From: a virus
Reading direction: 5' to 3' (one strand)
DNA: 64,000 nucleotides
Virus record (IMG/VR): IMGVR_UViG_3300023176_002545
Made by a program: the position numbers and the translations under genes. Positions 1,858 to 21,200 of the stretch are shown here, one piece after another; the stretch's first letter is position 1, and each line of letters begins with the position of its first letter. The notes under the pieces are model-generated. The model searched no databases and was not told where the DNA came from. It was given only the letters and a program-made list of their open reading frames with translations.

Positions 1858-2319
1858 ATGCTACTACCTAGTGTTAGTCTATCGTACGATGAATTTGTAT
1901 CTTTAATTAGAAGCGAGCATGCTTTTAATGAAGACATGGTTAGTTATATTGATCGAAAAGGCTTGCAACACTATTTAAAATTTGACGATTATATTTCATA
2001 TCTAGGTAAAATAGATAACTTATTGTTAGACAAGGATATAACAATTAAAGTAGAAAAATATGAAACTATGTGTAACTTTAATAAAGGCACTGTTCATATA
2101 TTTTATGCTAAAGAAGGAAGTCCTAGTTTTGACGAGCATTGTGATCCTGTAGACTTAATGTTGCAAGTAACACATGGTGTAAAAACAATAGAAATGAATC
2201 AAAGAGATTATACGTTGCATAAGGGAGAACGTTTATACATTCCTGCAAGTACATTACATCGTGCAACAAACAAATATGAAAGCATTATGCTATCTTGGGG
2301 TATAAATGACTGTACATAA
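1858..2319 (+). CDS. JmjC/cupin-type Fe(II)/2OG oxygenase
   Basis: SFDEHCDPVD (HxD), HGVK, LYIPASTLHRA (distal His). ATG 1858 directly follows the upstream TAA. Confidence 0.7.
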   Translation: MLLPSVSLSYDEFVSLIRSEHAFNEDMVSYIDRKGLQHYLKFDDYISYLGKIDNLLLDKDITIKVEKYETMCNFNKGTVHIFYAKEGSPSFDEHCDPVDLMLQVTHGVKTIEMNQRDYTLHKGERLYIPASTLHRATNKYESIMLSWGINDCT

Positions 2320-4365: not shown

Positions 4366-5275
4366 GTTTACTGTTAGCATAAACCCTACATACTTTTGTA
4401 ACTTTCGTTGCGACTTTTGTTATCTTACACCAGAGCAACTAGCAAACAAACATCGTATTAGCCCACAAGAACTTGATCAAAGATTAAGCGAAATAACTGT
4501 GCCTATTACACACGTTGACTTATATGGCGGTGAAATAGGATTACTTGACAAAGATTACTTTTACAGCATTAAAAGTGTAATAAAAAAACACTTTGCTGGT
4601 ACTATAAATATTAATACTAACTTTAGTGCAAGACCGGATTTCTTTTTAGACGACGATGTGCATGTTAGTGTGAGCTATGATTTTGAAGCACGTGAGCTAA
4701 GTGACACTGTGTTAAGAAACATATTATTGTTTCCTAAAGATGTAAGTGTACTTGTTTTAGCAAGCCCAAAAGTATTAGCAACAGACGTAGACTTTATGAT
4801 TAACACATTTAATATGGTTCAGAATATTAAGTGTGTTGAGATAAAACCTTACAGCACTAACCAAGCAAATGCACACCCTGTTACACACAAAGACTTTGAA
4901 GAACACGTTAAAAAATGGATAGAGTCACCAATACAAAAGCAATTTGATTTTGTAAATGTTGACGAGTTAGAAGATGTATTAGATGGAAAACGTAATGCAT
5001 TTTCAAACGATCATGTTTATATTACTCCAGATGCTAAGTTTGGTGTGCTAGAGTTTGATGACAATGATAATGAATATTTTGAAAAATATAATAAATTTGA
5101 AGATTATCTATTTTGGGCCGATCAAGAGCCAACAAAAAATTTAAGTCCTATATGTCATAGTTGCGAATACTATGGAAAATGTTTAACAGAACATTATAGA
5201 TTTGTACATGACTTAGATAATGGATGCAATGGTTACAAAGGATTAATAGACTGGTATGCTAGACTGGAAGATTAG
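4358..5275 (+). CDS. Radical SAM enzyme 3 with C-terminal Cys cluster
   Basis: CNFRCDFC, YGGEI and C-terminal CHSCEYYGKC...GC. Confidence 0.9.
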   Translation: MTEFTVSINPTYFCNFRCDFCYLTPEQLANKHRISPQELDQRLSEITVPITHVDLYGGEIGLLDKDYFYSIKSVIKKHFAGTININTNFSARPDFFLDDDVHVSVSYDFEARELSDTVLRNILLFPKDVSVLVLASPKVLATDVDFMINTFNMVQNIKCVEIKPYSTNQANAHPVTHKDFEEHVKKWIESPIQKQFDFVNVDELEDVLDGKRNAFSNDHVYITPDAKFGVLEFDDNDNEYFEKYNKFEDYLFWADQEPTKNLSPICHSCEYYGKCLTEHYRFVHDLDNGCNGYKGLIDWYARLED

Positions 5276-5675
5276 ACAACAACTTTTTAATTCTACTGCG
5301 GAAGAATTTACAGACGACTTAAATTTAGTTAATATTCGCACAGAAGAAGATAGTGTTACTTGGGCAGTAAAACACTTTAACGAACGTGTAGACGAATGGG
5401 TATATCCTGCTAAAAGTTATTTTGTAGCAATATGTTATGCTTATTGGATTAGTTTAGATTTTCGTTACGACTTTATTGAACTGCTAGACGACAAAGACTT
5501 GTTAGCAGGCAACGATCCATACTTTAAAACTTATAGTGAAGATAAAGCAACTTACAATGCTATACTTGATCAGGTTGAACTACCTGATCCTTCATCTCAG
5601 ATGGGAATGGTGCCCGACGTTCGATCGTATTATGAGGAAGAGATGATGTTTGACGAGTATCCCCTACATAGTTAA
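5256..5675 (+). CDS. Hypothetical protein in the radical SAM locus (139 aa)
   Basis: Overlaps the stop of rSAM3 in operon fashion. Acidic, with the YPAKSY...DLLAGNDPYF segment. No function recognised. Confidence 0.65.
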   Translation: MLDWKIRQQLFNSTAEEFTDDLNLVNIRTEEDSVTWAVKHFNERVDEWVYPAKSYFVAICYAYWISLDFRYDFIELLDDKDLLAGNDPYFKTYSEDKATYNAILDQVELPDPSSQMGMVPDVRSYYEEEMMFDEYPLHS

Positions 5676-6771
5676 AAAATTCACGTATAGGACATACGCC
5701 CGGCGGTAAGTCTCTTGCACGGTTCTTCCAGTCCCATTGTGTATAACAACGAAAACCACAACGATCAAAATAAGGACAACTTAAACAACCTACTTCATCC
5801 ATGTATGCTTGCATAAGGTTGGTGTTGTCTTTTCTAATATATGCATGATTAAAGTCATTGCGTGTATAACGATGCCAACGACAGTTTGCAGTTGTGTTGT
5901 CAGGGAATATTGTGAGCTTGTTTAAACTCATACAGTGCATTTGATTTTTATCTTGTGTTAATAATTCTCTATAAGGAAATACCATAGGATAGTTATCTGC
6001 AATATATTTCATAAACTTCAAATACAAACTATCACTTGGTACTAGATGATCGTAACCTGGATCAGGAATAAAATCATCAAAGAACAAATCAAAATTTTTG
6101 TACAAGTAATCAAAATACTCATCGCCAGCAAACAGTGCGTTAATACTGTCTGTTGTTGCTACTAGGTTAATAGTAGACACATAGTCTTTGAAACGTTCGA
6201 TATTTTTAGTGTATTGTCCGCCTGTAGGACGACCGCTTAGATCATAACTAGCAATCAGTTTACTTGGGATGTCTACTGCATTTAATTTGTCTAACAGTGT
6301 ACGTACATCTTCGTGATATTTGAATAAAAAGTTGCTGACCCAAACTACTTGTATTACATGTCCGTACTTGTCACAGATTTTTTTAATCTCAAGCATTAGA
6401 TCATAATACATAGGATACAGTGTTTCTCTTGCACGGTCTTGAAACAGCTCTCCGCCTACCATATTAAACTGCATAGCATGTACTTTGCCTTGCATCTTTT
6501 TACAGTGTGCTTCTACTAGAGGAAGTTTAGCAAGCATTTCAGGATATGTCATGCCCACTGTACTGTCTTTGTCATGAAAGCAAAAGTCGCACACAATAGG
6601 ACAGTTTTCAAATAGAGTGATTTCTATTTCGCCAATAAGAGGACGCTTACGCTCTAGTATCATATGCGTAACTGCATTTGCTGCTTGTTGTTCCGGAGTG
6701 TCTAATAAATGATCGTCGGTAACATTTTCAGGCATTAATGCTTTTAATATTTCTGTGCCACAACCGCCCAT
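5560..6771 (-). CDS. Radical SAM/SPASM enzyme 4
   Basis: CPIVCDFC, VGGEL and HC...NC...CLSCPYFDRCGFRC...VC. Confidence 0.92.
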   Translation of the reverse strand: MGGCGTEILKALMPENVTDDHLLDTPEQQAANAVTHMILERKRPLIGEIEITLFENCPIVCDFCFHDKDSTVGMTYPEMLAKLPLVEAHCKKMQGKVHAMQFNMVGGELFQDRARETLYPMYYDLMLEIKKICDKYGHVIQVVWVSNFLFKYHEDVRTLLDKLNAVDIPSKLIASYDLSGRPTGGQYTKNIERFKDYVSTINLVATTDSINALFAGDEYFDYLYKNFDLFFDDFIPDPGYDHLVPSDSLYLKFMKYIADNYPMVFPYRELLTQDKNQMHCMSLNKLTIFPDNTTANCRWHRYTRNDFNHAYIRKDNTNLMQAYMDEVGCLSCPYFDRCGFRCYTQWDWKNRARDLPPGVCPIREFFNYVGDTRQTSSLPHNTIERRAPFPSEMKDQVVQPDQV

Positions 6772-7895
6772 TATCTATAACCTATATTATTGTAAAGTGC
6801 CATTACGTTTTTATTTATAAGGCACTCGTTTTGTTGTATTACATCTGACATGAGTGTTTGTATTAGCCTTGAGTTACAATTTTCAACATACTCACAGTTG
6901 TTGCACACAAGGTTAGGTATATTTTTATACTGTTGTATTTGCAAGTTGTGCTTTTTATTCATTATACTTGTTAGCACACTGCCTTCTATTGGTATCTCAA
7001 AGCTCTCATGATATATTGGAGAGTTTTCATATAAGAAAGGAACAACATATAACTTGTCGTTATTAACAGTAACAATAACTTCGTTAAAGTTTTTATGACT
7101 ATTATCACTTTGTTGCCAAATAAAGTTTTCTTTAAAACGTTTTTCGTCTTTGTCTACAACACTTTGTATACTGTTATTCCAGCCTTGTATTATGCCTAAC
7201 ATTTTGTCAGGCTTGTTTACCATTGCACGTACTAGACTAGGTCCCCATTCTACAACAGTACCCCATTTTTTACGCACACTTTCTATTTTATCCAATACAT
7301 CATCGTCAACTTTTTGTGTAATATTACAAAGCAGACTTACTTCATACTCAACACTACTTGCTTCCATCATTGCAAGGCGTTTTTCAATAAGACTGTGTAC
7401 GTTTGAGTTATCCAACATATGCAAGTCAACTGCTATTTGTACATCAAAAGGACGCTCACAAAGATAACTGTTTTCAACATGTTTAATTACTTGTTCAACA
7501 CGTTCGTCTCCGATGAAAAAATCAACTGAACAGTTGTGTTGCAAGCCTCCTTCTTCAGGTAAAGCATCAACTATTTTACGAAAACGAGGATCTTCTAATA
7601 CAGGTATAATATTGCCGCTTGAAAAGAAATCGGTAGGTCCTACAATAATATCATCAAGCACATATTGTTCGGTTAGTTCATCAACTAATTGTGCTGCTAG
7701 GTCAAGTCCTAACCCTGTTCCGTAGTTTTTTCTGCGTTTAACAAAACAACCTGAACAGTTATATGCACACCCTTCAAGTATTTCAAGCATGAGTTGTATT
7801 TTTATTTTGTTTTGATCAGCAGGATTTACAAAACCTTCATCATGATAATCTGTTTTATTTTTGTTTAAGTAGTCTTGCCAATCTTTACGTAGCAT
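6771..7895 (-). CDS. Radical SAM enzyme 5 (GPTD subfamily)
   Basis: GCAYNCSGCF, VGPTD and CNNCEYVENC...EC. Start set at ATG 7895 (MLRKDW), overlapping the upstream stop region. Confidence 0.85.
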   Translation of the reverse strand: MLRKDWQDYLNKNKTDYHDEGFVNPADQNKIKIQLMLEILEGCAYNCSGCFVKRRKNYGTGLGLDLAAQLVDELTEQYVLDDIIVGPTDFFSSGNIIPVLEDPRFRKIVDALPEEGGLQHNCSVDFFIGDERVEQVIKHVENSYLCERPFDVQIAVDLHMLDNSNVHSLIEKRLAMMEASSVEYEVSLLCNITQKVDDDVLDKIESVRKKWGTVVEWGPSLVRAMVNKPDKMLGIIQGWNNSIQSVVDKDEKRFKENFIWQQSDNSHKNFNEVIVTVNNDKLYVVPFLYENSPIYHESFEIPIEGSVLTSIMNKKHNLQIQQYKNIPNLVCNNCEYVENCNSRLIQTLMSDVIQQNECLINKNVMALYNNIGYR

Positions 7896-8964
7896 TATAG
7901 CTCTCCAATACACGTAAAGGATATACACAGTCTTTAAATTTATAGTGTTCCATATACTTTAGTACATGTTTACTCATACATATTTCTCTACGACTACAAT
8001 TTTCACAACTTGTAGTTTCTGATAGGTAATCTAGCTGTTCTAAATATAATGTTGTTTTTAAATCAGTCCAACTTTTAATGTCTGTAGGATTTTGCACACG
8101 AAACTCATCAGTTTTTATTAGTGCTGCTTCATAAACAAACGGAGTTGAATAAAACTCTCCTTGACTGAATGTATAGTTAAGTTCAAACGGACCACCTTGG
8201 TCTTTGTCTGCAATAGTCATTGCAAGATATTCTTTATTTGTATCGTTAAAAGTATTTTCAATAGTCTTAACCCAGTCATTAATTAAACGTTCGTGTATTA
8301 CACCTTTGCTGTAACGTTGATAGCTAGGTAGTGTTTCCAATATACTTTCGTATTCATCACGCACTATGCGACTTATTTCTGCTAGATTTTCAATATTGCT
8401 ATCTATATTAAATGTAATGTAATAATCTACAGGATCAGTAAACTTGTTTAGTACTTCATGTATACGTGCAATGTTATTTTTTCTATATGTAGGATCTAAA
8501 ACTTGTTTAGGATCTATTACAACTTGGAAACCATATAGAAAATCATCACGCTTTGGTATACTGTTGAACTTCTCTATAACTTGGTCAATGTATTTGTCGT
8601 CTGCTTGCAGTGTACTTGGCATTTCAATAGTAGTACAACGACTTACTAGCGTTCTAAAGTTTTCGTAATCTAGTAAATCTAATATATTCAAGTTACCAAA
8701 CACATCTGTAGGACCAATGTTTACACTTGTAAAGCGTATATTGTTAGACATAAACAGTTCTTGTGCATCAAGTACCTTTTGAATGTCTTCGTTTGTAACT
8801 TGTTGACGTCTACGATTAACAAAGCACCCTGCACAGTTATGTATACAACCATCAAGAACGTCTAGAGTCATGTTTACTTTTATTTCGTGAGCATTTGCCA
8901 CACCAATATTGTAATCTTCGTGTCCTCTAGTTGTTTCCCAATAGTTATTTTTTACGATTGGCAT
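7885..8964 (-). CDS. Radical SAM enzyme 6 (GPTD subfamily)
   Basis: GCIHNCAGCF, IGPTD and CENCSRREIC...DC. Confidence 0.85.
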   Translation of the reverse strand: MPIVKNNYWETTRGHEDYNIGVANAHEIKVNMTLDVLDGCIHNCAGCFVNRRRQQVTNEDIQKVLDAQELFMSNNIRFTSVNIGPTDVFGNLNILDLLDYENFRTLVSRCTTIEMPSTLQADDKYIDQVIEKFNSIPKRDDFLYGFQVVIDPKQVLDPTYRKNNIARIHEVLNKFTDPVDYYITFNIDSNIENLAEISRIVRDEYESILETLPSYQRYSKGVIHERLINDWVKTIENTFNDTNKEYLAMTIADKDQGGPFELNYTFSQGEFYSTPFVYEAALIKTDEFRVQNPTDIKSWTDLKTTLYLEQLDYLSETTSCENCSRREICMSKHVLKYMEHYKFKDCVYPLRVLESYNAT

Positions 8965-10126
8965 GGTATACTTTCTTTATTTCTTCTAGTCGTTCATCGC
9001 CGTCTTCAGTTACTAAGAACTTTTTGCGATAACCTTGCTTGTCTGCTTCAACTGAATAGTCTGTCCAGTCATACATTTCTGCTGCACTTTTATTATAGTT
9101 ATAAATGTTCTTCATCATATTTTCTTTAGGTGCAATACAAGTGTCTACACCTAAGTAATCACGTAGTAATATTACTTTTCTGTTATAACAACTAAAGAAC
9201 AAGTCGCAATTTTCACACTCTGTACCTTTTGCACGTTCCATTTGTGTTAGTGTCTTGTAATATGCTTCGTCTAAGTCCTTAACTTCAAACTGTTCATCAT
9301 ACAATGCCATGTTTTCATACATAAATGGACTCAAATACCACTTGCCCTTCTTAAAGTTAAGTACTGTGTAGTTGTGTCCAGCATGAGAATGGTCAACCAT
9401 GATGTTGTTTAGATGAGTGTCTTCAGGTAGTGCTTCAAAAAATGCATTAAACTGGTTAAGTGTACGCAATATTATGTTAGGTTTATGGCTACGACTAACA
9501 CTTGGTATAAAGTCAATGGTAGTATCAAACTCTTTAACTACAAAATCATGTATTTGTTCATAGTCTAAGTCATATTGTCTAATGTTTACAATGAATGTGT
9601 ATGTACATTCGTGTTTTAGGTTAGCATCAATGTACGCAATACAACGTTTGAGCTGTTGTATGTACAATATGTCCTTGTAACGCATTGGATCTGTTGCAAT
9701 ACCTACCTCTATTTCAGTATCAGTGTTAACATTGGCGTGTAAGAAGTTAATCCAACGCTCTAAGTAGCTCATGTCTTGCTCTAAAAAGGTTGTAGTGAAC
9801 GCAAGTATAGGAGAGTTTTCATTTATCATAGACAACAAGTCGGGATCTTGCATTACTTGGTAAAAGTTTTCGCTAGACAGGCAGTCTGTTGGGCCTATTA
9901 GTACTTCATCTACTAAAATTCCCTTGTCAGTTATGCGTTTTACAAACTCACGGCACTGTTTTAAGTGATTTTCTTCAGGAGCATTGCCTCTACGGTGTAC
10001 AAAACAGCCCGGACAAGCGTGTATACACCCGTCTAACACATCTAATTGTATTTTTACGGCACTAACTGGTTTAGTTTGTGTTTCTGTTGTTAGCTCGTAG
10101 TACAAGTTGTTCTTAATGACTGGCAT
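8945..10126 (-). CDS. Radical SAM enzyme 7 (GPTD subfamily)
   Basis: GCIHACPGCF, IGPTD and CENCDLFFSC...TC. Confidence 0.85.
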   Translation of the reverse strand: MPVIKNNLYYELTTETQTKPVSAVKIQLDVLDGCIHACPGCFVHRRGNAPEENHLKQCREFVKRITDKGILVDEVLIGPTDCLSSENFYQVMQDPDLLSMINENSPILAFTTTFLEQDMSYLERWINFLHANVNTDTEIEVGIATDPMRYKDILYIQQLKRCIAYIDANLKHECTYTFIVNIRQYDLDYEQIHDFVVKEFDTTIDFIPSVSRSHKPNIILRTLNQFNAFFEALPEDTHLNNIMVDHSHAGHNYTVLNFKKGKWYLSPFMYENMALYDEQFEVKDLDEAYYKTLTQMERAKGTECENCDLFFSCYNRKVILLRDYLGVDTCIAPKENMMKNIYNYNKSAAEMYDWTDYSVEADKQGYRKKFLVTEDGDERLEEIKKVYHANRKK

Positions 10127-11141
10127 TTAGGTACTCCTTGGGCAATACACACTCTGTTAAACCTCTATCTTGCATGTAAAACAGTACATTACGCTCTGCA
10201 CAGCTCATTAAATGAGGACAACTTGCACATTCTTGAGTATTTTCAGCATATGCAAGGTTGCGAGACAAGAAATCATCACTGTTTATGTTTTGTACTTCAA
10301 AGTTTGGTGTACGTTGCAGTATAGCATCGTACAAAAACGGATTCATATACAGTTTACCATTGTAAAAACTGTAGTTAGAGCATCCATAGCCATTAAACTG
10401 TGCATCAAACATAGTATACAGGCTTTTGTACTTGGGGTCAATCTTTTGTTTGCTTAGTTCTTGTATAAACATTGGCAAATATTTACTTACTTTGCCTCTG
10501 CTGTTACGATCGTTAAGGAAACTTGGTAGTATAACTACAGGAGCATTGAAATCTTTCATGGTCATATCACATAAATGATTGTAATCAACACTATCAAATA
10601 TGCCTGGATAGTAGTTTACTCTAAACTGCACACTGCCTTGTTTAAACAGTTCAAGTTTGCGACACATATCTTCAACATCGCCCTGCAAGTAACGTTCAAT
10701 GTCGAGCACTATCTTAAAGTCTATGTCAGGTGTGCGATCTAGTCCTTCGTAAAGGCTCCAAATCTTAGTGTGTTTAGCAAGTATTGTGTTGTAGTCCTGT
10801 AGTAGCGTTGAGTTAAAACTTAATGCTGCAATGTTGTACAAGCGTTTCATACTAGGATGCTCCATCAACTCCCAAAAGTTTTCAGCATCAAATATATCAG
10901 TAGGTCCTATTACAACATCGTCAGGTGTATATGCACTAGATTCTAGTATATCACAAAGAGTTGTTAAGTGATCAGCACTGGTTAAGTTTTTGCGTGGAAT
11001 AAAACAGCCAGGACACTGTTGACTACAGCCGTGTAGTATGTCAGCATGAACTTCAACCCTAAGAAAGTTGTTATCCTTAGGGCTTACACCTTCAACGTAG
11101 TTATTAAATCCTGATGGAGTTGCGTTTAAGTTAACGAGCAT
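10113..11141 (-). CDS. Radical SAM enzyme 8 (GPTD subfamily)
   Basis: GCSQQCPGCF, IGPTD and CASCPHLMSC...EC. Confidence 0.85.
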   Translation of the reverse strand: MLVNLNATPSGFNNYVEGVSPKDNNFLRVEVHADILHGCSQQCPGCFIPRKNLTSADHLTTLCDILESSAYTPDDVVIGPTDIFDAENFWELMEHPSMKRLYNIAALSFNSTLLQDYNTILAKHTKIWSLYEGLDRTPDIDFKIVLDIERYLQGDVEDMCRKLELFKQGSVQFRVNYYPGIFDSVDYNHLCDMTMKDFNAPVVILPSFLNDRNSRGKVSKYLPMFIQELSKQKIDPKYKSLYTMFDAQFNGYGCSNYSFYNGKLYMNPFLYDAILQRTPNFEVQNINSDDFLSRNLAYAENTQECASCPHLMSCAERNVLFYMQDRGLTECVLPKEYLNASH

Positions 11142-12312
11142 TGACGATTTTCAAGGCATCGTCATTCCATTGCTCTGTGCTGTCAATAAACGGATTGTAC
11201 ATTTCAAGTACTTCTAGCGGCATCAGGCACTCATGCATATTCATAGCGTCTTGTGCTTGGAATATCAGTCTGTTTGCACATGCTACAGCATACTTACAAT
11301 CAGCACAATCCTTAACAGTGGAAGACTTTGCCAAGCCTTTTGCTATTAGTTGATCCCTCTTTGCCAATATTTCTTCAAAACTTAAACCTGTTACTTCTAA
11401 TTCTTTATGTTGTGTAAAGAACGCTTGTTCGTGTAGCATAACATTTAGGAATACACGAGGTGCATCAAAGCCAGGAATAATAGTTAGCCCTATGAAGTTC
11501 ATTGAGTTACAGTACAAGTTAGCCATACTCATTGTAACATCAGCATAGTTATCTTGATCTACTACTTCTTTTAAGAAGTTGTTCCATGCTACTAGATTCT
11601 TACGCTGGTGTAATACACTTGGTGCTCTAGAGAACGCAGGGTTCATTTCTAGAATAGTTTCGTAATCTTCAAGAATCTTGTATAGCAGTTTGTTGTAGTT
11701 TTCTTTAGTTAGATGTTTTTGCATTACATTACTTGCTTGTAATGTCCAACTCCAGTCAATGTTTTTAGGAGTTTCATTTGCAAAGAACTCTAGTTTTGCT
11801 TTTATGTCTTTGAAATATTCTTCATCATTAAGTATACGGTCAATATCACCTACTGGCATAATAAACTCAATGATCATTTCATCTCTGTATTTTGCAGGAT
11901 CGTCAAGTATTGAAAATACTTCACGTAGTCTTTCCATGCTTACATCGTCTATTTTGCTAGGTGTAGCAATACGTGCTTTTGTATGTTCACGCATGATATC
12001 CTGTATAATAGGATTGTTAAGAATATTGTCTGTATTATTTGCTGAGAAAAGATCAGTTGGACCAATAACAAACTCACGTAAATTAAGTCCTGTGCGTGTT
12101 ACGCCGTCTGCAAGTTCTTTTGCAGTAGTTAACATTGCATCCATTGTAGCAACGTCTTGATTTTTGTTAACAAAACAACCTAAACAACCATGGTTACAAC
12201 CAGTGAGTCCTTCAAAGTTAATTAGTACGTCAAACTTTTGTGCATGACTAGGAGGTAGACTCTCAGGTCCACTGTATCTCATCTGCTTGCAGTATGATTG
12301 TTGCATTGTCAT
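11131..12312 (-). CDS. Radical SAM enzyme 9 (GPTD subfamily)
   Basis: GCNHGCLGCF, IGPTD and CADCKYAVAC...EC. Confidence 0.85.
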   Translation of the reverse strand: MTMQQSYCKQMRYSGPESLPPSHAQKFDVLINFEGLTGCNHGCLGCFVNKNQDVATMDAMLTTAKELADGVTRTGLNLREFVIGPTDLFSANNTDNILNNPIIQDIMREHTKARIATPSKIDDVSMERLREVFSILDDPAKYRDEMIIEFIMPVGDIDRILNDEEYFKDIKAKLEFFANETPKNIDWSWTLQASNVMQKHLTKENYNKLLYKILEDYETILEMNPAFSRAPSVLHQRKNLVAWNNFLKEVVDQDNYADVTMSMANLYCNSMNFIGLTIIPGFDAPRVFLNVMLHEQAFFTQHKELEVTGLSFEEILAKRDQLIAKGLAKSSTVKDCADCKYAVACANRLIFQAQDAMNMHECLMPLEVLEMYNPFIDSTEQWNDDALKIVNAR

Positions 12313-13019
12313 TCTGTTATTCCCTCATCAAATAATTCTAGCATATTATTTGCAACACCATGTTTTATTAATGTGTTATATAAGTCAGCACCTTGATACT
12401 TACTTTCATTGTTAAAAACTCTAACATTTAAGTTACTAGTTGGCCACGGACCAAACTTATGTCCTAACAAATACAAAACATCAATAGCATATGTTGCTAT
12501 ATATACAATATTTAGCCCGATTTCTGTATCACTATCAGTGTATTCTAACTCTTCTGGCACAAGTTCTTTATACTTGTCGTTATATTTGCTGGCTTGATCA
12601 ATACAGAACAATGCAACGTGTTGCATTTTGTCTAACAAATCGTCAAATAATTTTCCATGTTCATTAATATACTCGTCGATCATATCATTTGACCACAGAG
12701 TATTCATTGCAGCATCAACATTGTTATATTCTTGACCTAATTTTCTTTTTGCAATTAGTGCTATAATTCTAGCTAGTAAAGGTGCTTCAACTAGAAAATT
12801 AATTTTAATATATTCATTTAGTAGTTCTGCATCAACAGTGTCAAACTGTACTTTAAAGTTTGTGTTAGCAATATAGACTAAGATATGTTTTACAGATAAT
12901 ACTTTTTTACTTTCTTCATAATTTACATGAAGAGTGTAATCATCACTATCTGCTTTGATCTTATAAATTTCTGCTAGATCTGTTGGTTTTAAAGGTAGTA
13001 TATAACTTTGTGTTGACAT
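12309..13019 (-). CDS. Hypothetical protein in the radical SAM locus (236 aa)
   Basis: Long ORF with a GGAGA SD, ATGA-type overlap with rSAM9. No recognised motif. Confidence 0.75.
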   Translation of the reverse strand: MSTQSYILPLKPTDLAEIYKIKADSDDYTLHVNYEESKKVLSVKHILVYIANTNFKVQFDTVDAELLNEYIKINFLVEAPLLARIIALIAKRKLGQEYNNVDAAMNTLWSNDMIDEYINEHGKLFDDLLDKMQHVALFCIDQASKYNDKYKELVPEELEYTDSDTEIGLNIVYIATYAIDVLYLLGHKFGPWPTSNLNVRVFNNESKYQGADLYNTLIKHGVANNMLELFDEGITE

Positions 13020-13027
13020 TGTGTCTC

Positions 13028-14080
13028 CTATACCAGTGGTTTTACTTTAAACAGCAAATACGGTATACGACTCTTACGCTTGTAGAAGAATTCTACTTCA
13101 CTCCAAGCATTTCTAAGTGCTTCGTTATTTGCAAAATTAAATCCGCCCTCTGCTATTTGTACTACAATAGGAATAGTTTTAGCAAATTCTTTGTATACTT
13201 CTTCATATTCCCAATCTTCGTGGTTGTTAATGAGTTCTAAGAGTTCAGCATTATTGCCAACATCGTTCCAAAAATCTCTTAACACATAAAGTGCTTGCAT
13301 GCGATTTTTATTTTGGAATGTATCTTTAACAAATTGTACTTTGTCCCATGATGAATTACCGTTTGCATGGAACCAATCAATAATACCGTTAATAACACTA
13401 ATATAACCAATTTTATTTTGTAGCATACCAATTACTTCATCAATCATTTTTTCACTGTGAACAGTGAATTTTTCACGCAAATGATTTTGTGTTACTAAGT
13501 TAATTTCTGCATACGTTTCATTTTCGTTATACTTGTCATTAATAAAGAAAAGTATATCATAACCCCAATGTTTACTACTTGGAGTGCCCATGTTATGCCA
13601 TTCATTTTTAGCGTAAACATCTTCAACACAACCGTTAATATCATTTTCTGTAAATGTAGTGTATGTTGCGTATGTAATATCTCTTTGGAACACTAACTTT
13701 AAAAAGTCTTTTACTACATCTTTAACATCTTTGTTAGTTGCTGTTTGTAGTAGAGATGCAATATACTTTGCATATACACGAATTAAATCTAATGCATCAT
13801 CAAATAATAAAAACTCTTTGTCATTGTTTGACAAATATTCCCATGTGTTTATTTGATCAGTTGTAGTGAACGAAAGCATATCCGGATTTGCATTAGGATA
13901 ATCTGTAAGTAGTGTATTAACATACGAGTCTCGTACTTGTGAGTGTCCTTCCGGTGCTACTAACACCATTTTTCTTGTTTGATCGCCTGCCCAAGGACTC
14001 TCTGCTAAAGCACTTACCATAGAGCTAGACTTTCCTAAATATTTCTTATTGTTGATATAATAAAAACTTTCACCTATCAT
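13028..14080 (-). CDS. Hypothetical protein in the radical SAM locus (350 aa)
   Basis: Long ORF whose start overlaps the stop of the CHxS protein (TAATG). No recognised motif. Confidence 0.75.
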   Translation of the reverse strand: MIGESFYYINNKKYLGKSSSMVSALAESPWAGDQTRKMVLVAPEGHSQVRDSYVNTLLTDYPNANPDMLSFTTTDQINTWEYLSNNDKEFLLFDDALDLIRVYAKYIASLLQTATNKDVKDVVKDFLKLVFQRDITYATYTTFTENDINGCVEDVYAKNEWHNMGTPSSKHWGYDILFFINDKYNENETYAEINLVTQNHLREKFTVHSEKMIDEVIGMLQNKIGYISVINGIIDWFHANGNSSWDKVQFVKDTFQNKNRMQALYVLRDFWNDVGNNAELLELINNHEDWEYEEVYKEFAKTIPIVVQIAEGGFNFANNEALRNAWSEVEFFYKRKSRIPYLLFKVKPLV

Positions 14081-14463
14081 TATCTTCTTCCCCTTGAGCC
14101 GTGACAGCTATAATGGCAACTACTATGACAGATTCTCCAATCAAAATATGTGTTAGTTAGTCTGCCTTCTATTTGGTTAACTGTGCGTGAAATACAGTTA
14201 GTTGCAAAATTTTGTACCTCACTTGCATATACTTTTAGATTATCTCCAATGTTATTTGGAAGATCTGCTGTACTATATGTTCCTTGTCCTGCGTTTACAT
14301 ACTCATAACGTCTGTTACCGTAAGCAGTTCCAGAACCCCAACCACTTACGTTTGCATAATAGCACGTAGCATTGAAGTTAATAGTCTTGTCAAAAGATCT
14401 AAGACGTAGATACGCATTGTTATAGTATCTTGTTTCTAAAGAAGCGTGTGACTCGCCTGCCAT
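14080..14463 (-). CDS. CHxS-repeat protein 1, candidate radical SAM substrate (127 aa)
   Basis: Ends ICHSSCHYSCHGSRGRR. Paralogous to the neighbour (LRxFDKT, GTAYGNRRYEYVNA). Confidence 0.8.
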   Translation of the reverse strand: MAGESHASLETRYYNNAYLRLRSFDKTINFNATCYYANVSGWGSGTAYGNRRYEYVNAGQGTYSTADLPNNIGDNLKVYASEVQNFATNCISRTVNQIEGRLTNTYFDWRICHSSCHYSCHGSRGRR

Positions 14464-14837
14464 TACCTTCTCCCTCTACTGCCGTGACAACTATAATGGC
14501 AACTTGTATGACAAATACGAAAATCAAAATACTGATTAGTTATTCGACTTTCGATTAAATCACAAGTTCTTGTTATAGCATTTAGTGCCTGGTCTATCAT
14601 ATGTCCTGCATCTACTAGTGTAGTATTGGGATACACGTTTCCGTTGTAATCACTGTTAGGAGCATTTACATACTCATAACGTCTGTTACCATATGCAGTA
14701 CCTGCGTTGTAACCGCCATAGTTTTGATTAGTATAAACTGTGGCTGCTACGTTTACAGTTTTATCAAACCCTCGCAATTGAGCACCAGCATTGCCGGTAA
14801 AATAATCTCTTGCGGATGTTCGATTCATGTTTCCCAT
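14463..14837 (-). CDS. CHxS-repeat protein 2, candidate radical SAM substrate (124 aa)
   Basis: Ends ICHTSCHYSCHGSRGRR. Starts 3 nt after the stop of the 4221-aa fibre gene. Confidence 0.8.
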   Translation of the reverse strand: MGNMNRTSARDYFTGNAGAQLRGFDKTVNVAATVYTNQNYGGYNAGTAYGNRRYEYVNAPNSDYNGNVYPNTTLVDAGHMIDQALNAITRTCDLIESRITNQYFDFRICHTSCHYSCHGSRGRR

Positions 14838-14840
14838 GGA

Positions 14841-15215
14841 TTATACCTTAACTTCAACTACATCTGTACCGTCTTCAATAGCAACACCAATTAATAATGT
14901 GTATTCTGCTATAGTACTTAGTTCGTCTATAGCACGGCCTGCACCGTCCTGATCAGCAATAATATACTGACCTTTCTTAGCAGAACCGTTAATCTTACAT
15001 GGAACACGACCTTTTAGTGCAACGAACGGCCACATTGGATCATCTCTGTTATCGTCTGTTTGGTTCATCATCAAACCTGGCTGTGTTGATACAACGCCTG
15101 CTAGTTTCATGCCTTCTTTGTATAGTGTAACTTCTTTGTCGCCACCAATACCTAGTACTGTACCTGGAGCATACACTGCGTCTGCTTCGTATTTCTCTGC
15201 CAAGTCAGCCCAGTT
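14841..15215 (-). other. C-terminal intramolecular chaperone / autocleavage domain (Peptidase_G2-like) of the fibre
   Basis: ADLAEKY...GVVSTQPGLMMN...VALKGRVPCKI pattern. Confidence 0.65.
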
Positions 15216-18200
15216 AGCACTTGCTGCTGTACCTTGATAAACACCGCTGTTGTCAACGTATGAAACATCTGTACCGTCACGTCTAAACTGAACAATACGA
15301 TCGGAGTTAGCACCAGCTGCCATGTAGAATCTGTTAGCATGATATTCAATCTTACCAACGTCATTACCTGGGTTACCAGTCCATGTTTCGTTTGCGTTTT
15401 CCATAAAGCGGATGCCTGGTGAGTTACCATCATTGTTGTATGAACGTAGTGCCCAGTTACCATCTTCGTTTAGGAAACCTTGTGATGCATCGTCTGCATA
15501 TAGTCTACCATAGATAGTGTTTGAACTGTTGTTTAAACGTAGTTCACATGATCCAGTATTTGCAGAACGGAACGCCATTGCGTTTGTTTCATTTGGATAA
15601 ATGTGCCAGCCTGCGTAGTTGCCACCTTGCCAGTAAATACCTGAGTTGCTTTCAATGCGTACCCAGTTATCAACATATAGCTCGCCTGCAATGTTTGCAC
15701 CGTCGGAACGTGTTTGAACTTTCCAACTACCATTGTGCATCATTTCAGTTTGGCCGCCGTGTACACCGTAGAACAACCACTGGTTATTTACATCGTTGTA
15801 GATACCAGTTGCTGTACCGCCATCATGCATGAATACTGCACGACCATCAATGCTAAAGCCTTCCCAGTTACCATAACCACTACCGCTAATTTGGATTGAA
15901 CCGTAGTCGCCTGTTGGTTCTCTTAAGTAACGTGTAGTTTGGTTACCAACTGCAATAAACTGTTTAACAACTAGTCGACCATCTGTTGTAAGTGCCATAG
16001 CACCAGCTGCTACGCCGTCACCATCATGTCTCCACTTCCAACCACGGTCTGTGTCGTTGTTCATTGTAAAGGTCATTGCATAGTCATTCAACCAACCCAT
16101 TGTTTGACCACTAAACATACCAATTGAGTATGAGCTGTTGTTCCAAACACGTAGTTTGTCGTAACTATCGCTGCCTTCGCCGTCAATGTAACCAATGTTA
16201 TAACGTGTGCCACTTGCAAACAAGTCTGGGAATGTACCAGCGTTTAGATTGCTTGCATTACGGAAGAATGCACTATCATTACCATCTAGTAAGTCTGCAT
16301 CTAAGCCGCTGCCGCTACCATCGTTACCAGCATGCCATACTTTGTATGCATTAGCACCCATTGACCAACCGCCAACTGCTAGATCGTTTGTACTTCCGTC
16401 TAGACCAAAGTGTACAGCATAGTCGCCACCAATATGGAATGTTAAGAATGCATCATATTGGTTAGCACCGTTACCTTGATATAGTTGTAATGTGTTAACT
16501 TCACCAGTGTTTTGAATTGTTGTTGCAGGAGCACTAATTGTAAACACACCGCCACTAAATGCAGCACCAGTATCAACACGTAGGAAGCTACTTGCATGCA
16601 ATCCGTCTAGTAGGTCTGCGTTTAAGCCTGAACCTGCACCGTCGTTAGCGTCAGTCCAAATAGCACCGCCGTTAACATAACCAGTTGTAGCGTTAAAGCT
16701 ACCATTAACATCTAGGTTATAAGTACCGCTTGGATCTTTGTTAATACCAACTTTACCATCACCGCGTACTGAGAATACAATGTTACCATTAGTTTGACTT
16801 ACGTCATTGTTAACACGGAAGAATGTGCTTGCCGCAGCATTGTTTGAGTTAGTGTCAAGTCTTACGTTAACGTTGTTGTAAGAGTTAATGCTTAAACTAT
16901 CGCCAGCACCCCAAGTATCGTTACGTGAACTAATACCATGGTTTACATAGCCGCCAATTGCACCGTAGTTTCCATCCCAGTCAAAGCTAATGCCATGTAC
17001 TTTTGCAAGTTCGCCTGTTGTGCCACCGCTTGAAATAAAGCGTCTATTAGTGTCAATAGTTTCAACGCCGCCTACATTATAACTGTTACCGTCAATAGCA
17101 CCAGTTAGTGTAAGTTCAGCAGCAACTAAGTTACCACCAACGTACAAGTTCTTACCAAAGCTACCACCACCGTCTACACGTAAAGCACCTGTTGTAGTGC
17201 TTGTTGCTTGGTCAGCGGAGTTAACGTGCAAGTAACCACTTGATGCACCAATGTCAATAGCAGTTGCAGCACCACCAATGTTGAGTGTAGTAACTGTATC
17301 GTTTAATAGATCAAATGTTGCTTGGTTAGTACCCAAACTACTTGCTTGTGTAATAACGTTTTTGTTAAGTCTAATAGCATCGCCTGCGAAACTTGCTACA
17401 AGTTCGCTTGTTTGGATGCCGCTACCTGAACCAATACTTTCGGAACCATAAATGTTAACTATAGCACCAGTACCTGAACCAGTACCTGGGTTTGGTTTTA
17501 GATTTAGTTCAGAACCGTTAACGTTAAACTGTCCAGTAATTGGACCTTTTACACCAATTGTACCTGATTGTTTAGAACCTTGTGAACCTCTACCAAACTC
17601 TAGTTTGTGAGTATGTGCATCAGTACCACTTACTTCAACGCGATTAACTTGTGTTGTTGAAGTACTGCCTGAAGTTCCTGAATAGCCTGTGTCAATAAAC
17701 ACAGATCCTGCTACACCACTACCAGTGCTTGCACCGCCTTGTACTGTTAGATCTGCACCTTGCTTGTTAGTACCTAATGCATTTGGTGCTTTGATTACTG
17801 AATCAACTGGAGCAGTTTCTACTGCATCGCCACCTACAACCATTGTAGTATTTCTAACTGCTAGTGTACCAGATTTGTCAGCACCTAAAGTAATTAATGT
17901 TGCTGCTCTACCAATACTTAGTGATGTAACTGTAGTATCGTATACAGTTGCACTTGTCTTAGTAGTTTTAATATCACCACCATCAACATTAAAGTCACCG
18001 TCAATTTGTAGGTTACCTAGTGAATCAAGAACCATGCGTTCTGCTAAGAAGCCTGCTGCCATCAAGTTAAACTTGAAGCTAAAGTCTTCAGAACCAAACG
18101 TTACATCTGATGCAACAGCGTCAATAGTACCACCAACTTCTCTGTTGTTGTTTGCAGTTTCTACTTGGAACTGCATACCAACACCAATACCTACTGCTGG

Positions 18201-21200
18201 TGTGTTAGAAACATCGTGACGTATTTCAAGTGGTCTTGAAACACCAAAGTTGTTAGTATCTTCTACGAACGGAGCAACGTCATTTGACCATGCTGGGTTT
18301 CCTAATTCGTCAACAACCATAACAGCACCTTGGCTACCAATTGGTAGTCTGTTTAGTGTTGTTGGTGATGTTGCATAAATCATATCACCTGCAATATACT
18401 GATCAAGTGCTGTACCACCTTTGTTAACAGGCACAGGGTTTAACATGTTACCTGGATCTAAGAAGTATTGACTGTCTAGTCCGTCAAGTGTACCTGCATC
18501 AAGTACGCCTGCTTTTAGTTCAACTTCACCTGAATTTACATTAAACTGTGCTTTGCTGTATGAAGCAACACCTTCGTTTGTAAAGCTCTGATTACCTAAT
18601 GTATCATCTGCTCTGTCAATATCAAGTTGTGTATCTTTATAATAGAAGTTTTGTCCACCGCTAGTATAGAAGTTACCAGTAATGTTTAGTGGTGAGTTAA
18701 GTGCTGTTCTTGTAGTTCTTACTGCATAATCCCAGCTGCTGTCACCTTTTAAGTATGTGTTACTGTTAGCAGAACCAATAGATGCAAGTCTTGATGTACT
18801 AATAACACCCGAAACAATGTTTGAAGCATCAACGTTTGCACTACCAGTTAGTGCCCAGTTTGCAGAATTTTTACTTGAAGTATTAATTTCGCCGTAAACT
18901 GTGATATTCTGATGGATAAAGTCTGCACTACCACTACCAGTTTGAACAAAGTTAATTGCACCTTGTACAACACCGTTTACACTGTTTAGAGCATCTTCTC
19001 TAAATTCGTGTACTGTGAAAGTGTTTTGACTTACTGTACCTGCGTAGTAGTAAGATCCACTTGACATTCCTGTTGGAGGGTTAGTACCTACAAAGCGGAA
19101 TGCTCTACCAGCTGTAAATCCGTGGTTTGGTGAGTAGATCTTATCTTTACGTGTGTCAACGTTGTTGATAATAAGTGCATGTGTACCAGTTGAACTTACA
19201 GTAAAGTTAACTTTTGTACTTGCATTTAAATCATACCTGTTGTATAATTCAATAGTGTTAGCATCAATTACTTTTACAAAGTAACTTTCACCCTGCAACA
19301 TACCTCCAATTGGAGTGTTTGGTGAGCTTGCATAGTTAACAACGTCACCGTCATCAAATATATGACTTGTTATTTCAATCTGTGAATTTGCATAGTCAAC
19401 ATTACCACCGTTTGCTAGTGTATCTGCATTAAATGCATTAAGCGAGTTACCACCTAGTGCAACAGTATCAACTTGTGCATTGTTATCTTCAATGTACTCG
19501 TTAGTACTTGTTGATGCAACAAACTTGCCTGCAAGTAGATCAACATACAGTCTGTTGTCAACGCTAAGTGCTGAAATTTGGAAAGCTGAACTTGACTGTC
19601 CGCCTAAGTTTCCTGTTGCTGCACTCAATACATCTGTTGTTGTATAACCACTACCACCTCTAACCAAGTCAACGCTTGATACTTGGCCGTTAGTAACTGT
19701 GATATCTGCTCTTGCACCAGTACCTGAACCGTTAACATTTGTTAGTGGTACGTTGTTATATGTTAAAGAACCTGTTGTAGGAACATAACCTGAACCGTTA
19801 CTAATATTTGCTAAGTCAACTGCAAGTAGTACACCTTCAGCTTGTGCAGTAACAACACCTTGTGTTTTTGAGTTAGCTGCTGTAACAGTTACACCGTTTG
19901 TAAATGATGCTCCAGCAGGCTCATATCTCAAATACTGACTGTCACTGTCTTGAATCATTGTGTACTGAATATCACGTGTTTCAGATGAGCCAGTGTTTGT
20001 GATGTATGTTGTAGTGTTGTTGCCATTTTTGCTTAGTGTATTAGCACTAATATTGTTGCTAAATGTGCCAACAATGTTTGTTAGGTAAACAGTAGTTGCA
20101 CCACCGTTGTCTTCATCAACAATAGCAGTAGCACCTGTGTTTGCTTCAACAATTACATCATCTTCGTTAAACTGTGTTGGAGCACTTAGAGTAAACAGTG
20201 TACGTGGATAACGTTCTTGTGCAATGTCACCCTGTAATGGCTCTTGTGGTGGAATATCATCAGTTAGATCATATCTACCAAATTTTGTGTTTGTAGTGAA
20301 CAAACTAAAGTTACGTGTTGCAGGAATAATATCTGCGTTCAACAAACCTTGTGCGTTCATTTGTGGAACAGCACCACTAACTGAGTTAGTAGATACGCTC
20401 TTATCAATAAAGTCACCTAGTCTGTTTGCTAAGAAGCTACGCTGTGCCAACTGTGTTGTCAAACGTGTATCTGTAGCACCACCTGGTTCGTTGTCACCTA
20501 GTCCTGGATCAGTTGAAATTGCTTCAATAACAACATCTGAAACTGCAAGTTTCAGTGCTGAAAGTTCACCAACTGTAACTGTGTTTTTAAATGTAATGTT
20601 ACCAGTTCTGTTTTCTGCAACAATGAAGTCACCAACTTTAAAGTCACCTAGTTCGTTAGTACCTGAAGAGTAAACTCGTCCTGGTAAGTCACTAAACTGT
20701 TCGTATTCTTCTCTTGTAATACCACCGTTCTGTGGTAGAGCGTTATAGTCTGTACCAGAACCTGCATATTCCCAAGTGTGTGATGAACTGTTAACAATTG
20801 AAGGTCTATGGAAACGTATAAATGTTCCCTGTAGGTTACCTGTGTTAGTTAACACACCACCAACAATAGTTGGATCAATAGTAAACTCTGCTGTGTACAA
20901 GTCTGTTCTAGAAGTAAAGCCTGTTACAGCAATGTTACTTTGTGGAATAGCACTACTATCATTGTCAATGATAGAAGTAGCATCAAAGAAGATTCTTGTT
21001 AGAGAACCGCTGTTTTCTGCTTTTTCTACTGAAACAGTAAGTGTGCGTGTTGCTGCTTCATATGTATAAACAAACGCTTTGTTTCTGTAGATACCAGTAG
21101 TTGCTTCAATAAGGTCGCCTGGGTTAAAGTTATAAGTTCCAGGAGCAAGTGTTAGTACTTGATACTTGTTGTGTGTTAGCTTGTTACCATCAGCGTCTTG

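Follow-up and report, generated by a model that had tools for sequence, protein, structure and literature searches.

Phage proteins with an invariant Cys-His-Arg tail, encoded among radical-SAM and oxygenase genes beside a giant fibre gene

Twin tail-protein genes and their neighbours

The window, by which we mean the whole 64,000-nt stretch analysed (IMG/VR record IMGVR_UViG_3300023176_002545), comes from an uncultured phage. Its minus strand carries two adjacent ORFs for small paralogous proteins, found exactly where an earlier reading of the sequence had placed them (Table 1). The two proteins are 51% identical (BLASTP, E 3e-39) and both close with CH[T/S]SCHYSCHGSRGRR before the stop codon (C-terminal sequences RICHTSCHYSCHGSRGRR and RICHSSCHYSCHGSRGRR), the tail being 16 residues long in each. 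Neither twin matched an NCBIfam or Pfam model, and both match PHROG 35144, an uncharacterised phage protein family (E 4e-6 for copy 2, 8e-6 for copy 1); they align with the C-terminal end of this profile, which their long relatives match as well. The AF2 model of a twin shows, at low confidence (overall pLDDT 58), a body made of a helix, a beta-hairpin and a second helix, with the tail predicted to be disordered (pLDDT <50).

Table 1. Genes and features of the window discussed in the text (nucleotide positions in the window)
Feature	Position	Strand	Remarks
2OG-Fe(II) oxygenase, 185 aa	1299-1856	plus	PF13759, E 6e-18
Cupin/JmjC-type oxygenase, 158 aa	1843-2319	plus	PF08007 JmjC_2, 29.6 bits (cutoff 22)
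rSAM-SPASM ortholog	2306-3331	plus	CX3CX2C, GGEP, CX2CX5CX3C SPASM signature
Second rSAM_A paralog, 344 aa	3331-4365	plus	Radical_SAM PF04055
rSAM_C, 305 aa	4358-5275	plus	
p136, conserved accessory protein	5256-5675	plus	Usually follows rSAM_C
rSAM_A-cluster radical-SAM protein, 403 aa	5560-6771	minus	phrog_1802, E 3e-26
Five tandem rSAM_B paralogs	11131-12312, 10113-11141, 8945-10126, 7885-8964, 6771-7928	minus	
p236, near-universal partner gene	12309-13019	minus	In 65/74 viral loci
p350, accessory protein	13028-14080	minus	Twin clade only; takes the place of p371 or c30 of other clades
Tail protein copy 1, 127 aa	14080-14463	minus	ORF, paralog of copy 2; tail encoded at 14083-14130
Tail protein copy 2, 124 aa	14463-14837	minus	ORF; (CHxS)3-RGRR tail encoded at 14466-14513
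Giant fibre/virion protein, 4221 aa	14841-27506	minus	Directly upstream of the twins; FIB cluster

The twin genes are translationally coupled: the fibre gene ends in a TAA that is followed, after 3 nt, by the ATG of copy 2, and TAATG overlaps occur both between the twin genes and between copy 1 and the gene for the 350-aa protein. One member of the fibre cluster (L041) carries a Peptidase_G2 IMC domain, and the counterpart of the giant fibre in Agrobacterium phage Atu_ph07 is gp180, annotated as a T4-like structural protein. An hhalign comparison of p350 with p371 returned a probability of 4% and lends no support to homology between them. The AF2 model of p236 is confident (pLDDT 90), and a Foldseek search of the PDB with it found nothing at E <= 0.001, its structural relatives being uncharacterised phage proteins only. 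In a wide VIA-align comparison the highest Z was 4.8 and concerned residues 1-61 alone, and the radical-SAM rows were weak, scattered and untrusted (ChlB Z 3.6, anSME Z 3.2); an ESM Atlas shape search with p236 stayed at TM <= 0.35, and PDB sequences searched with HMMs of p236 and p371 yielded nothing meaningful. Complex prediction for p236 with the 124-aa twin gave three discordant runs (scores 0.00, 0.88 and 0.00), to which we attach no weight in either direction.

The window holds up to nine radical-SAM (rSAM) genes, six on the minus strand and three on the plus strand. Every rSAM_B protein carries the motifs CxxxCxGC and GPTD and, towards its C-terminus, a CxxC-x5-C...C cluster; the rSAM_B profile found no match among PDB sequences. 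CX3CX2C lies near the N-terminus of all six minus-strand enzymes and of 139/145, 27/28 and 25/25 members of the rSAM clusters. The 5560-6771 protein has a C-terminal Cys-rich region resembling SPASM or twitch domains, and at 15 bits against TIGR04085 (cutoff 27) it gives the sole, sub-cutoff, profile match to SPASM. Against PF04055 the 3331-4365 protein scores 36.3 bits (gathering cutoff 29.5), and the other rSAMs fall below the cutoff at 17.6-26 bits. The 2306-3331 protein is 52% identical to the enzyme whose gene, in the majority of the other phages, immediately precedes the one for the tail protein. In this paired enzyme C249, C252, C268, C307, C310, C316, C320 and C330 are invariant and fit, by eye, the SPASM motif of CX2CX5CX3C with flanking cysteines that hold auxiliary 4Fe-4S clusters; its nearest solved relatives (8vpo, CteB 5wgg, anSME 4k37 and ChlB 9gm3) are peptide or protein maturases. 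In 49 loci the cupin/JmjC and rSAM-SPASM genes occur as a pair.

The invariant C-terminus of the tail family

The twins belong to a family of 627 clusters at 50% identity, in which every match runs to the last residue. The consensus at the extreme C-terminus, (C-H-x-[S/N/A])x3-R-x-R-R-COOH, is the sole constant part of these proteins, and the twins conform to it, having three C-H dipeptides at four-residue spacing and R-x-R-R as their last residues. Cys, His and the arginines at -4, -2 and -1 are unchanged in 146-148 of the 148 matches listed, while the tail Ser can be exchanged for Asn or Ala across the family. The 'HxS' reading of the earlier note is therefore weaker than one of 'CH...RxRR': the serines are dispensable, and it is the Cys, the His and the three Arg that do not vary. 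A glycyl-radical reading of the tail was discarded, Gly at -3 and -6 being replaceable.

Chance falls far short of accounting for the tail. With a degenerate DNA pattern we retrieved 87 ORFs on 77 IMG/VR contigs, with a stop codon directly after the pattern in 87/87. A looser form of the pattern should, by our own estimate, match about 0.1 times by chance across the 596 Gb of the genome collection, and reversed-pattern controls gave 0 matches in the 15 records searched. Codon usage among 108 distinct tails is mixed, with Cys and His divided about 50:50 between their synonyms, Ser encoded by both TCN and AGY, and Arg by both AGR and CGN, which indicates that conservation acts on the protein and not on the DNA. 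The tail is the conserved functional element, as had been proposed, with family-wide constancy limited to the extreme C-terminus. Such strict invariance of 16 residues on otherwise unrelated bodies points to one defined, probably unusual product.

The bodies are variable and 100-500 aa long (124-541 aa for family members overall). Long members bear a Gly_rich_2 domain and match PHROG 863, 'tail fiber assembly'; three long ones among the nine family members tested match Gly_rich_2 PF21722, of which we found no mention in the literature. The internal motifs LRxFDKT and GTAYGNRRYEYVNA are indeed present in the twins and conserved within their clade, where R22, F24, D25, T27, R53, Y56, V57 and A59 are invariant (n=22 sequences). 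Neither motif was found in other subfamilies of the tail family, so that they are clade-specific features of the body and not, as had been suggested, general elements for enzyme recognition or docking.

Tblastn of a twin, a 190-aa form and p236 against 50,697 phage records returned one match or none, and ESM Atlas feature searches with p236 and a 190-aa tail protein gave no usable match. The RSL2-type protein and the rSAM enzyme were the only queries that led to cultured carriers.

Linkage of the tail gene with radical-SAM and fibre genes

Radical-SAM genes stand beside the tail gene in 72/74 viral and 34/35 genomic loci, and all three loci that have none are truncated. The earlier note had held that its proposal would fall if the motif were common away from rSAM genes, and this is not the case. 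The linkage also holds in the reverse direction. The SPASM enzyme is encoded on 349 IMG/VR contigs, and the tail gene comes immediately after it in 32 of the 68 informative loci; among 10 sampled contigs with a layout like that of the window, 8 have tail genes at another place, and the 2 in which none was found are fragments with an estimated completeness of 16-23%. Contigs chosen by their SPASM-type rSAM gene therefore nearly always hold a tail gene, and tail and radical-SAM genes are tied in both directions.

The conserved cassette consists of genes for a fibre, the cupin/JmjC protein, the rSAM-SPASM enzyme, the tail protein, p236, further rSAMs and 2OG oxygenases, and its kept order is fibre, cupin, rSAM, tail, p236, p371 and again rSAM genes. 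With 627 tail-protein clusters and so many contigs encoding the paired enzyme it is widespread, and its carriers are marine T4-like and jumbo phages, soil jumbo phages of Ralstonia, Burkholderia and Agrobacterium, and chromosomes of Bdellovibrionota. The cassette partners are all present in the window (rSAM genes within 5560-12312 and 2306-5275; cupin and p236 as in Table 1). A fibre gene, a member of the cluster of the giant fibre, precedes the cassette and its tail gene in 45/74 viral loci, and a Halobacteriovoraceae chromosome has a Peptidase_S74 fibre-type gene about 2 kb from the cassette. No CH-tail ORF was found in the 60-95 kb region scanned of Ralstonia phage RP31, which has an rSAM cluster and a published virion proteome. 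In the literature searched on radical-SAM enzymes of phages or Bdellovibrio we found no description of the cassette.

Gene linkage alone leaves the fibre or a small molecule as possible substrates of the enzymes. The tail could then be an unmodified metal or Fe-S site of three Cys and three His that docks the protein on the fibre, perhaps completed in a trimer, as happens with His-metal sites in the fibres and spikes of phages. Many such structures bind metal on the trimer axis, T4 gp37 and gp12 being examples. The invariant Cys3His3 set consists exactly of classic metal ligands and would require no enzyme, with Ser free to vary; the tail gene is located in fibre modules, and modification of the tail is so far putative in all members. 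This reading nevertheless leaves unexplained why, in unrelated phage lineages and in Bdellovibrionota, the tail gene and the SPASM enzyme accompany each other whichever of the two one starts from, and it offers no reason for an R-x-R-R-COOH that is as invariant as the Cys and His, and we consider it unlikely.

We give even less credence to the tail as an atypical c-type haem attachment site, an alternative also raised in the earlier note, and regard it as barely tenable. C-H-x-S-C-H does contain CX3CH, but the two possible sites overlap and the motif is not CXXCH. No haem-lyase, cytochrome c maturation or export function was recognised among the cassette families, and no signal peptide was noticed in the sequences by eye; moreover, phage assembly is cytoplasmic and the rSAM genes would be left without a role.

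A virion homolog and a putative modification of the tail

Particle evidence for the family comes from the homolog in Agrobacterium phage Atu_ph07, AUZ94952, a protein of 296 aa that ends in CHSSCHASCHNSRSRR before its stop codon. We mapped it to gp170 of the published virion proteome, since its computed mass of 31.89 kDa equals the value given there (Table S5, PMC6102473). In Atu_ph07 particles gp170 was detected by 8 unique peptides with 35% coverage of the whole protein, the tail peptide not being singled out, and the neighbouring enzymes gp168, gp169, gp171 and gp172 are absent from the virion list (PMC6102473). The homologs in the Ralstonia and Burkholderia phages RSL2, RSF1, FLC6 and S13 are annotated only as 'hypothetical', not as virion proteins.

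Taken with the linkage, these data lead us to infer that the twins are probably virion proteins of the fibre module with a tail that the cassette enzymes modify. The substrate would be the 16-residue tail, (Cys-His-x-Ser)x3-Arg-Gly-Arg-Arg-COOH, carried on a variable body. The enzymes would be one SPASM rSAM paired with the cupin/JmjC oxygenase, further rSAM paralogs and 2OG-Fe(II) oxygenases, with p236 and p350 as putative helpers, and all cassette genes would be expressed late, from the fibre operon. The disordered tail would be modified in the cytoplasm, and the finished protein would then enter the particle in the fibre or adhesin module, leaving the enzymes behind. The likeliest SPASM reactions would be Cys-based thioether or C-C cross-links, and the likeliest JmjC/2OG reaction hydroxylation of His or Arg; the outcome could be a locked tail, a metal site, or a link of the protein with itself or with the fibre. 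Radical-SAM maturation has so far concerned secreted peptides (RiPPs), a small number of enzymes (sulfatases and QhpC) and, as of 2026, the HXS defence effector; up to nine rSAMs and iron oxygenases around a virion protein would, if this modification is real, extend the chemistry to virus assembly and host recognition.

Packaging also bears on a genuine RiPP or cofactor pathway, in which the body would serve as a leader and cleavage of the tail would release a small modified peptide, for instance a metallophore or a redox cofactor, in the manner of PqqA or MftA. Mycofactocin and PQQ likewise combine an invariant C-terminal core with an rSAM-SPASM enzyme, and many tailoring enzymes are present. 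Against such a pathway, the bodies are long, apparently folded, variable and sometimes equipped with extra Gly-rich domains, the genes sit in late structural operons, no protease or exporter was recognised among the conserved cassette families, and the Atu_ph07 homolog is present in virions with 35% of its sequence covered; we think it improbable. A RiPP-style precursor, in which the leader is conserved and the core varies, is the reverse of what is seen, namely an invariant tail on a variable body of 100-500 aa.

Still less probable, in our view, is a tail protein that acts as a helper of the enzymes, its Cys-His tail donating Fe-S clusters to the rSAMs or serving as the scaffold from which they are loaded. 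Three Cys at four-residue spacing could hold a cluster, the many rSAM genes of the window would need many of them, and one Bdellovibrionota cassette has a gene for an Fe-S carrier of the NUBPL/Mrp type at a distance of about 2 kb. A scaffold, however, has no need of a variable body, of Gly-rich receptor-type insertions or of virion packaging, and the invariance of RxRR-COOH would go unexplained.

Several known systems resemble parts of the proposed modification. In the HXS antiphage system HxsA is matured by the rSAM enzymes HxsB and HxsC with HxsD, and a site-specific mass change, +8 Da on SHRSS, has been mapped (Li et al. 2026, PMC13128918). The likeness lies in a full-size protein with short His-x-Ser repeats, dedicated rSAM enzymes and a small helper. 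HXS, however, serves the defence of bacteria and has a periplasmic effector that binds peptidoglycan, whereas the tail system belongs to phages and predatory bacteria, to a fibre module and to a virion protein; here (CHxS)3-RxRR stands at the exact C-terminus with Cys and Arg invariant and Ser dispensable, and the enzymes are many more. The twins lack contiguous HxS repeats and a peptidoglycan-binding domain of the HxsA type, having no NCBIfam or Pfam match. For the six minus-strand rSAMs and the twins an NCBIfam scan found no Hxs model at E <= 1, the rSAMs giving just weak NrdG, viperin and MiaB core matches, which speaks against membership in the His-Xaa-Ser system; the three plus-strand rSAMs were scanned against Pfam profiles only.

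Ranthipeptide and SCIFF systems (CteB 5wgg; PapB, with CX3D repeats) likewise have an rSAM-SPASM enzyme adjoining a Cys-periodic C-terminus with four-residue spacing, and the paired enzyme matches CteB at E 2e-7, in the rSAM core only (residues 10-118). Its cluster motif, however, starts at residue 19 and leaves no room for an N-terminal RRE, and the candidate substrates of the tail family have 124-541 aa as compared to the roughly 45-aa Cys-rich SCIFF precursor. Unlike in ranthipeptides, the i+4 position is Cys or Arg, with no Asp/Glu acceptor, and a thioether here is hypothetical. With anSME, which acts on sulfatases (4k37; E 2e-7 with the paired enzyme), and QhpD, which acts on QhpC, the system shares minimal SPASM enzymes and, putatively, a residue change or cross-links in a folded functional protein; it differs in having no sulfatase C/S-x-P-x-R motif, a target at the extreme C-terminus, and multiple rSAM paralogs and oxygenases. 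His-x-Ser would also fit the aromatic-X-X motif of triceptides, the three-residue cyclophanes (ChlB 9gm3; E 1e-6), but Ser may be replaced by Asn or Ala, the Cys flanking each His is invariant, and there is no short leader-plus-core peptide.

On the structural side, the tail proteins recall the T-even adhesin gp38 (PF05268), a small protein with a variable body whose gene immediately follows that of the distal fibre, and some tail-family members have glycine-rich domains. At the same time, gp38 has neither a Cys-His tail nor maturation enzymes, and none of nine tail-family members matched the GP38 profiles (PF05268 / PF21721) at E <= 1, with S16 gp38 as positive control for the GP38 profile at E 4e-73.

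More tentatively, and with clearly less confidence than in modification as such, we suggest that phages and predatory Bdellovibrionota might have a dedicated pathway of many rSAMs and oxygenases that makes a covalent staple, or an integral metal or cofactor site, out of the invariant Cys-His-Arg tail, and might so join a small, exchangeable adhesin-type protein to the host-binding fibre. If so, enzymatic RiPP-style chemistry would be used to build a virus particle. Atu_ph07 gp170 was found in gel bands 1-9 and was most abundant in band 1, at the top, despite its 31.9 kDa, whereas for other Atu_ph07 proteins near 30 kDa the maximum lies in bands 7-8 (PMC6102473). Under the staple reading this anomalous migration would be the first trace of the link; it may instead reflect an SDS-stable oligomer or smearing and not a covalent link, as several Atu_ph07 proteins smear over many bands (PMC6102473). 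Atu_ph07, RSL2/RSF1, FLC6 and S13 can be cultivated and their virions purified, which makes the putative modification directly testable by mass spectrometry.

Twin genes and the tail family

Two adjacent genes that follow a fibre gene encode paralogs, here called the twins, that share a C-terminal tail of 16 residues, (CHxS)3-RGRR, with both proteins ending in ...RICH[T/S]SCHYSCHGSRGRR before the stop codon. The first twin ORF is separated from the fibre gene by a 3-nt gap, TAATG overlaps couple twin to twin and the twins to the next gene, and the two proteins are 51% identical; the earlier note's description of the pair was right in every detail. The viral record that holds the window is an uncultured IMG/VR record of 117,792 bases, with an estimated completeness of 33%, and the major head protein encoded there shares ~70% identity with those of T4-related jumbo phages of 350-470 kb (e.g. 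Serratia BF, Vibrio 2.275.O and Sinorhizobium Phosso).

Coordinates of the fibre gene, the twins and associated genes in the window
Feature	Position	Strand	Remarks
Fibre gene	14841-27506	minus	4221 aa
Twin, first after fibre gene	14463-14837	minus	124 aa
Twin, second after fibre gene	14080-14463	minus	127 aa
p236 (cassette protein cluster)	12309-13019	minus	confident AF2 model, pLDDT 90, pTM 0.88
Five tandem rSAM_B (radical-SAM cluster) paralogs	6771-12312	minus	GPTD in place of the canonical radical-SAM GGE SAM-binding motif

A degenerate DNA pattern for the tail retrieved 87 ORFs on 77 IMG/VR contigs, with a stop codon immediately after the motif in 87/87. When 1.84 billion representative proteins were searched with a 60-position profile made from the last 60 residues of 33 diverse members, 627 clusters matched at E <= 0.001, with the match running to the final residue of the protein. 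The 148 matches listed follow the pattern [V/I/Y/T]-C-H-x-[S/N]-C-H-x-[S/N/A]-C-H-x-[S/N/A]-R-x-R-R-COOH. All three Cys, all three His and the arginines at positions -4, -2 and -1 are kept in 146-148 of these matches, and Ser and Gly can be replaced. The tail codons are a synonymous mix, with Ser and Arg each encoded from both codon families, which shows that selection on the tail acts at the protein level.

The bodies, 117 to 541 aa long, can barely be aligned from one subfamily to another; they share a helix-strand element immediately N-terminal to the tail. Of the internal motifs LRxFDKT and GTAYGNRRYEYVNA, which the earlier note had stressed as recognition or docking elements, conservation was seen within the twin clade but not beyond it. 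Three long members (P0103, P0107 and P0094) carry a Gly_rich_2 (PF21722) domain as an N-terminal fusion or insertion and also match PHROG 863, 'tail fiber assembly'; these matches and the place of the tail gene directly behind the fibre gene recall gp38-type adhesins, and a sequence match of the tail family to GP38 was not found. As a separate observation, a Firmicute-associated variant (L107, Dysosmobacter segnis contig NZ_JACOQI010000054.1, ORF end ~3907) has many CHxSCH units with NV(P)V spacers between them and a final ...CHDSCHSARGRR, and two Bacteriovoracia loci (L108 and L116) have four CHxS units instead of three, showing that the repeat number can expand.

Linkage of the tail gene to radical-SAM enzymes

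Clustering of all ORFs from 79 loci gave a conserved order of protein clusters: p1214, p76, fibre, cupin/JmjC, rSAM, TAIL, p236, p371, rSAM, p206, rSAM, 2OG oxygenases, rSAM_C and p136, with a B12-binding rSAM as an extra gene in some loci. The window's clade has two copies of the tail gene, five rSAM_B paralogs that come after p350 and p236, and a cupin / rSAM-SPASM / rSAM / rSAM_C / p136 block on the other strand that converges with the remaining genes. The rSAM_B paralogs had no match to any PDB sequence profile, and their subfamily is limited to 16 of the 79 loci.

Of the loci with two or more other ORFs, 72/74 viral and 34/35 genomic ones contain radical-SAM genes, and all three loci without one are cut by the contig or locus end. 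The rSAM gene usually found just upstream of the tail gene encodes a well conserved, SPASM-type enzyme (the paired enzyme) with CX3CX2C, GGEP and eight invariant C-terminal Cys, including CX2CX5CX3C, and its relatives are encoded on 349 IMG/VR contigs. The converse test agrees: the tail gene directly follows the paired enzyme in 32 of 68 informative loci, the remainder have a window-like layout, and in that layout tail genes were found elsewhere on 8 of 10 sampled contigs, the two negatives being small fragments. The motif is thus clearly not one that is common without rSAM neighbours, the outcome that would have spoken against the earlier note's reading. Separately, the Ralstonia phages RP31 and RP12 have a different multi-rSAM cluster (ORF72-76), and a CH-tail ORF was not found in the 60-95 kb region scanned in RP31, so jumbo phages have more than one kind of radical-SAM cassette.

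The cassette enzymes are of the class whose members modify peptides and proteins. Among solved structures, those closest to the paired enzyme are 8vpo, CteB, anSME, ChlB and YydG, with similarity limited to the rSAM core. The cupin matches JmjC_2 (PF08007) with a score above the cutoff, a family that includes the ribosomal-protein Arg and His hydroxylases; apart from Cys, the invariant residues of the tail are His and Arg, and the tail is predicted to be disordered. For p236, neither Foldseek nor VIA-align gave a convincing PDB match to the model, and none was found in the ESM Atlas; its sole structural relatives, all of them uncharacterised phage proteins, include ones from Atu_ph07 and RSF1, and p236 may be a new fold that serves the cassette as a helper.

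A tail-family protein in virions

Among cultured phages, the paired enzyme is carried by four groups only: the RSL2/RSF1/FLC6/S13 group, Agrobacterium phage Atu_ph07, Sinorhizobium phage Phosso and Pseudomonas phage pPa_SNUABM_DT01. The tail-protein homolog of RSL2-type phages is annotated only as 'hypothetical'. In Atu_ph07 the order is cupin (AUZ94954), rSAM (AUZ94953), tail protein (AUZ94952; 296 aa, ending CHSSCHASCHNSRSRR*) and a p236-like protein, all downstream of a 13,350-nt 'T4-like structural protein' gene. This giant gene is gp180 in Table S1 of Attai et al. 2018 (PMC6102473), which makes AUZ94952 gp170; its computed mass is exactly the 31.89 kDa listed for gp170 in Table S5 (PMC6102473), and for gp176 and gp177 the computed and listed masses agree to 0.01 kDa. 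Virion mass spectrometry detected gp170 by 8 unique peptides with 35% coverage, while gp168, 169, 171 and 172, which are the p236-like protein, the enzymes and a neighbour, are missing from the list (Table S5, PMC6102473). The tail-family member is therefore a genuine particle protein and the cassette enzymes are not. gp180 itself is also missing from that list (PMC6102473 Table S5); the giant protein may not have entered the gel, or the annotation may be wrong.

gp170 is spread over gel bands 1-9 with peak abundance in band 1, which otherwise holds 87- and 127-kDa proteins, ~30-kDa proteins peaking in bands 7-8 (PMC6102473). After SDS and heat it thus runs much higher in the gel than its own size would give, which fits an SDS-stable oligomer or a covalent link; since several Atu_ph07 proteins smear across many bands, this is a lead rather than proof.

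The twins are probably virion proteins of the fibre module with an enzymatically modified C-terminal tail, and we place far less confidence in any specific chemistry. The likely reactions would be Cys-based cross-links plus hydroxylation of His or Arg, which might stiffen the tail, form a metal site or serve to attach the tail. The main rival draws on the same invariant residues as an unmodified Cys3His3 metal site and has the neighbouring enzymes act on something else; we consider it unlikely. Three further readings fit the data worse: a released RiPP or cofactor, which is quite improbable, an Fe-S scaffold, which is very improbable, and a haem site, to which we give almost no weight.

In concept, the closest described system is the bacterial HXS defence system, where rSAM enzymes mature a full-size protein carrying HxS repeats (PMC13128918). 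Membership in this system, raised in the earlier note, was not borne out, as no NCBIfam Hxs model matched the six minus-strand rSAMs or the two tail proteins at E <= 1, and the motif logic and biology differ. In the tail motif Ser is dispensable, and Cys, His and Arg are not. The SCIFF/ranthipeptide, triceptide, anSME and QhpD/QhpC systems are analogies only. A description of the cassette was not found in the papers searched, and jumbo-phage genome papers go no further than listing the cupin, rSAM and 2OG genes among accessory genes of unknown function.

Cassettes in Bdellovibrionota

A looser tail pattern, scanned against one genome per species for 185,579 prokaryote species, gave 47 loci. 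Four (L080, L082, L085 and L110) were read as chance, low-complexity matches, and in four others an ORF scan did not find a motif-bearing ORF. Most of the remaining loci are from Bdellovibrionota, on contigs up to 2.8 Mb, and a few resemble phage contigs that were binned into MAGs. Housekeeping genes, including serine dehydratase, SLT, MFS and helicase, surround the cassette in two Bdellovibrionota chromosomes; in one of these a 413-aa protein that contains a Peptidase_S74 fibre-chaperone domain is encoded ~2 kb from the cassette, and in the other a 2355-aa RCC1/Big_2 protein ~270 bp from the p236 gene. The cassette thus occurs alongside fibre-like or large surface-type proteins in bacterial predators of two very different kinds. 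In a Halobacteriovoraceae chromosome (G002), a gene for a NUBPL/Mrp-type Fe-S cluster carrier ATPase (L132:8046-9200, minus strand; PF10609, E 2e-92) lies ~2 kb from the cassette; it may provide the many rSAM enzymes with clusters, or its position may be coincidence.
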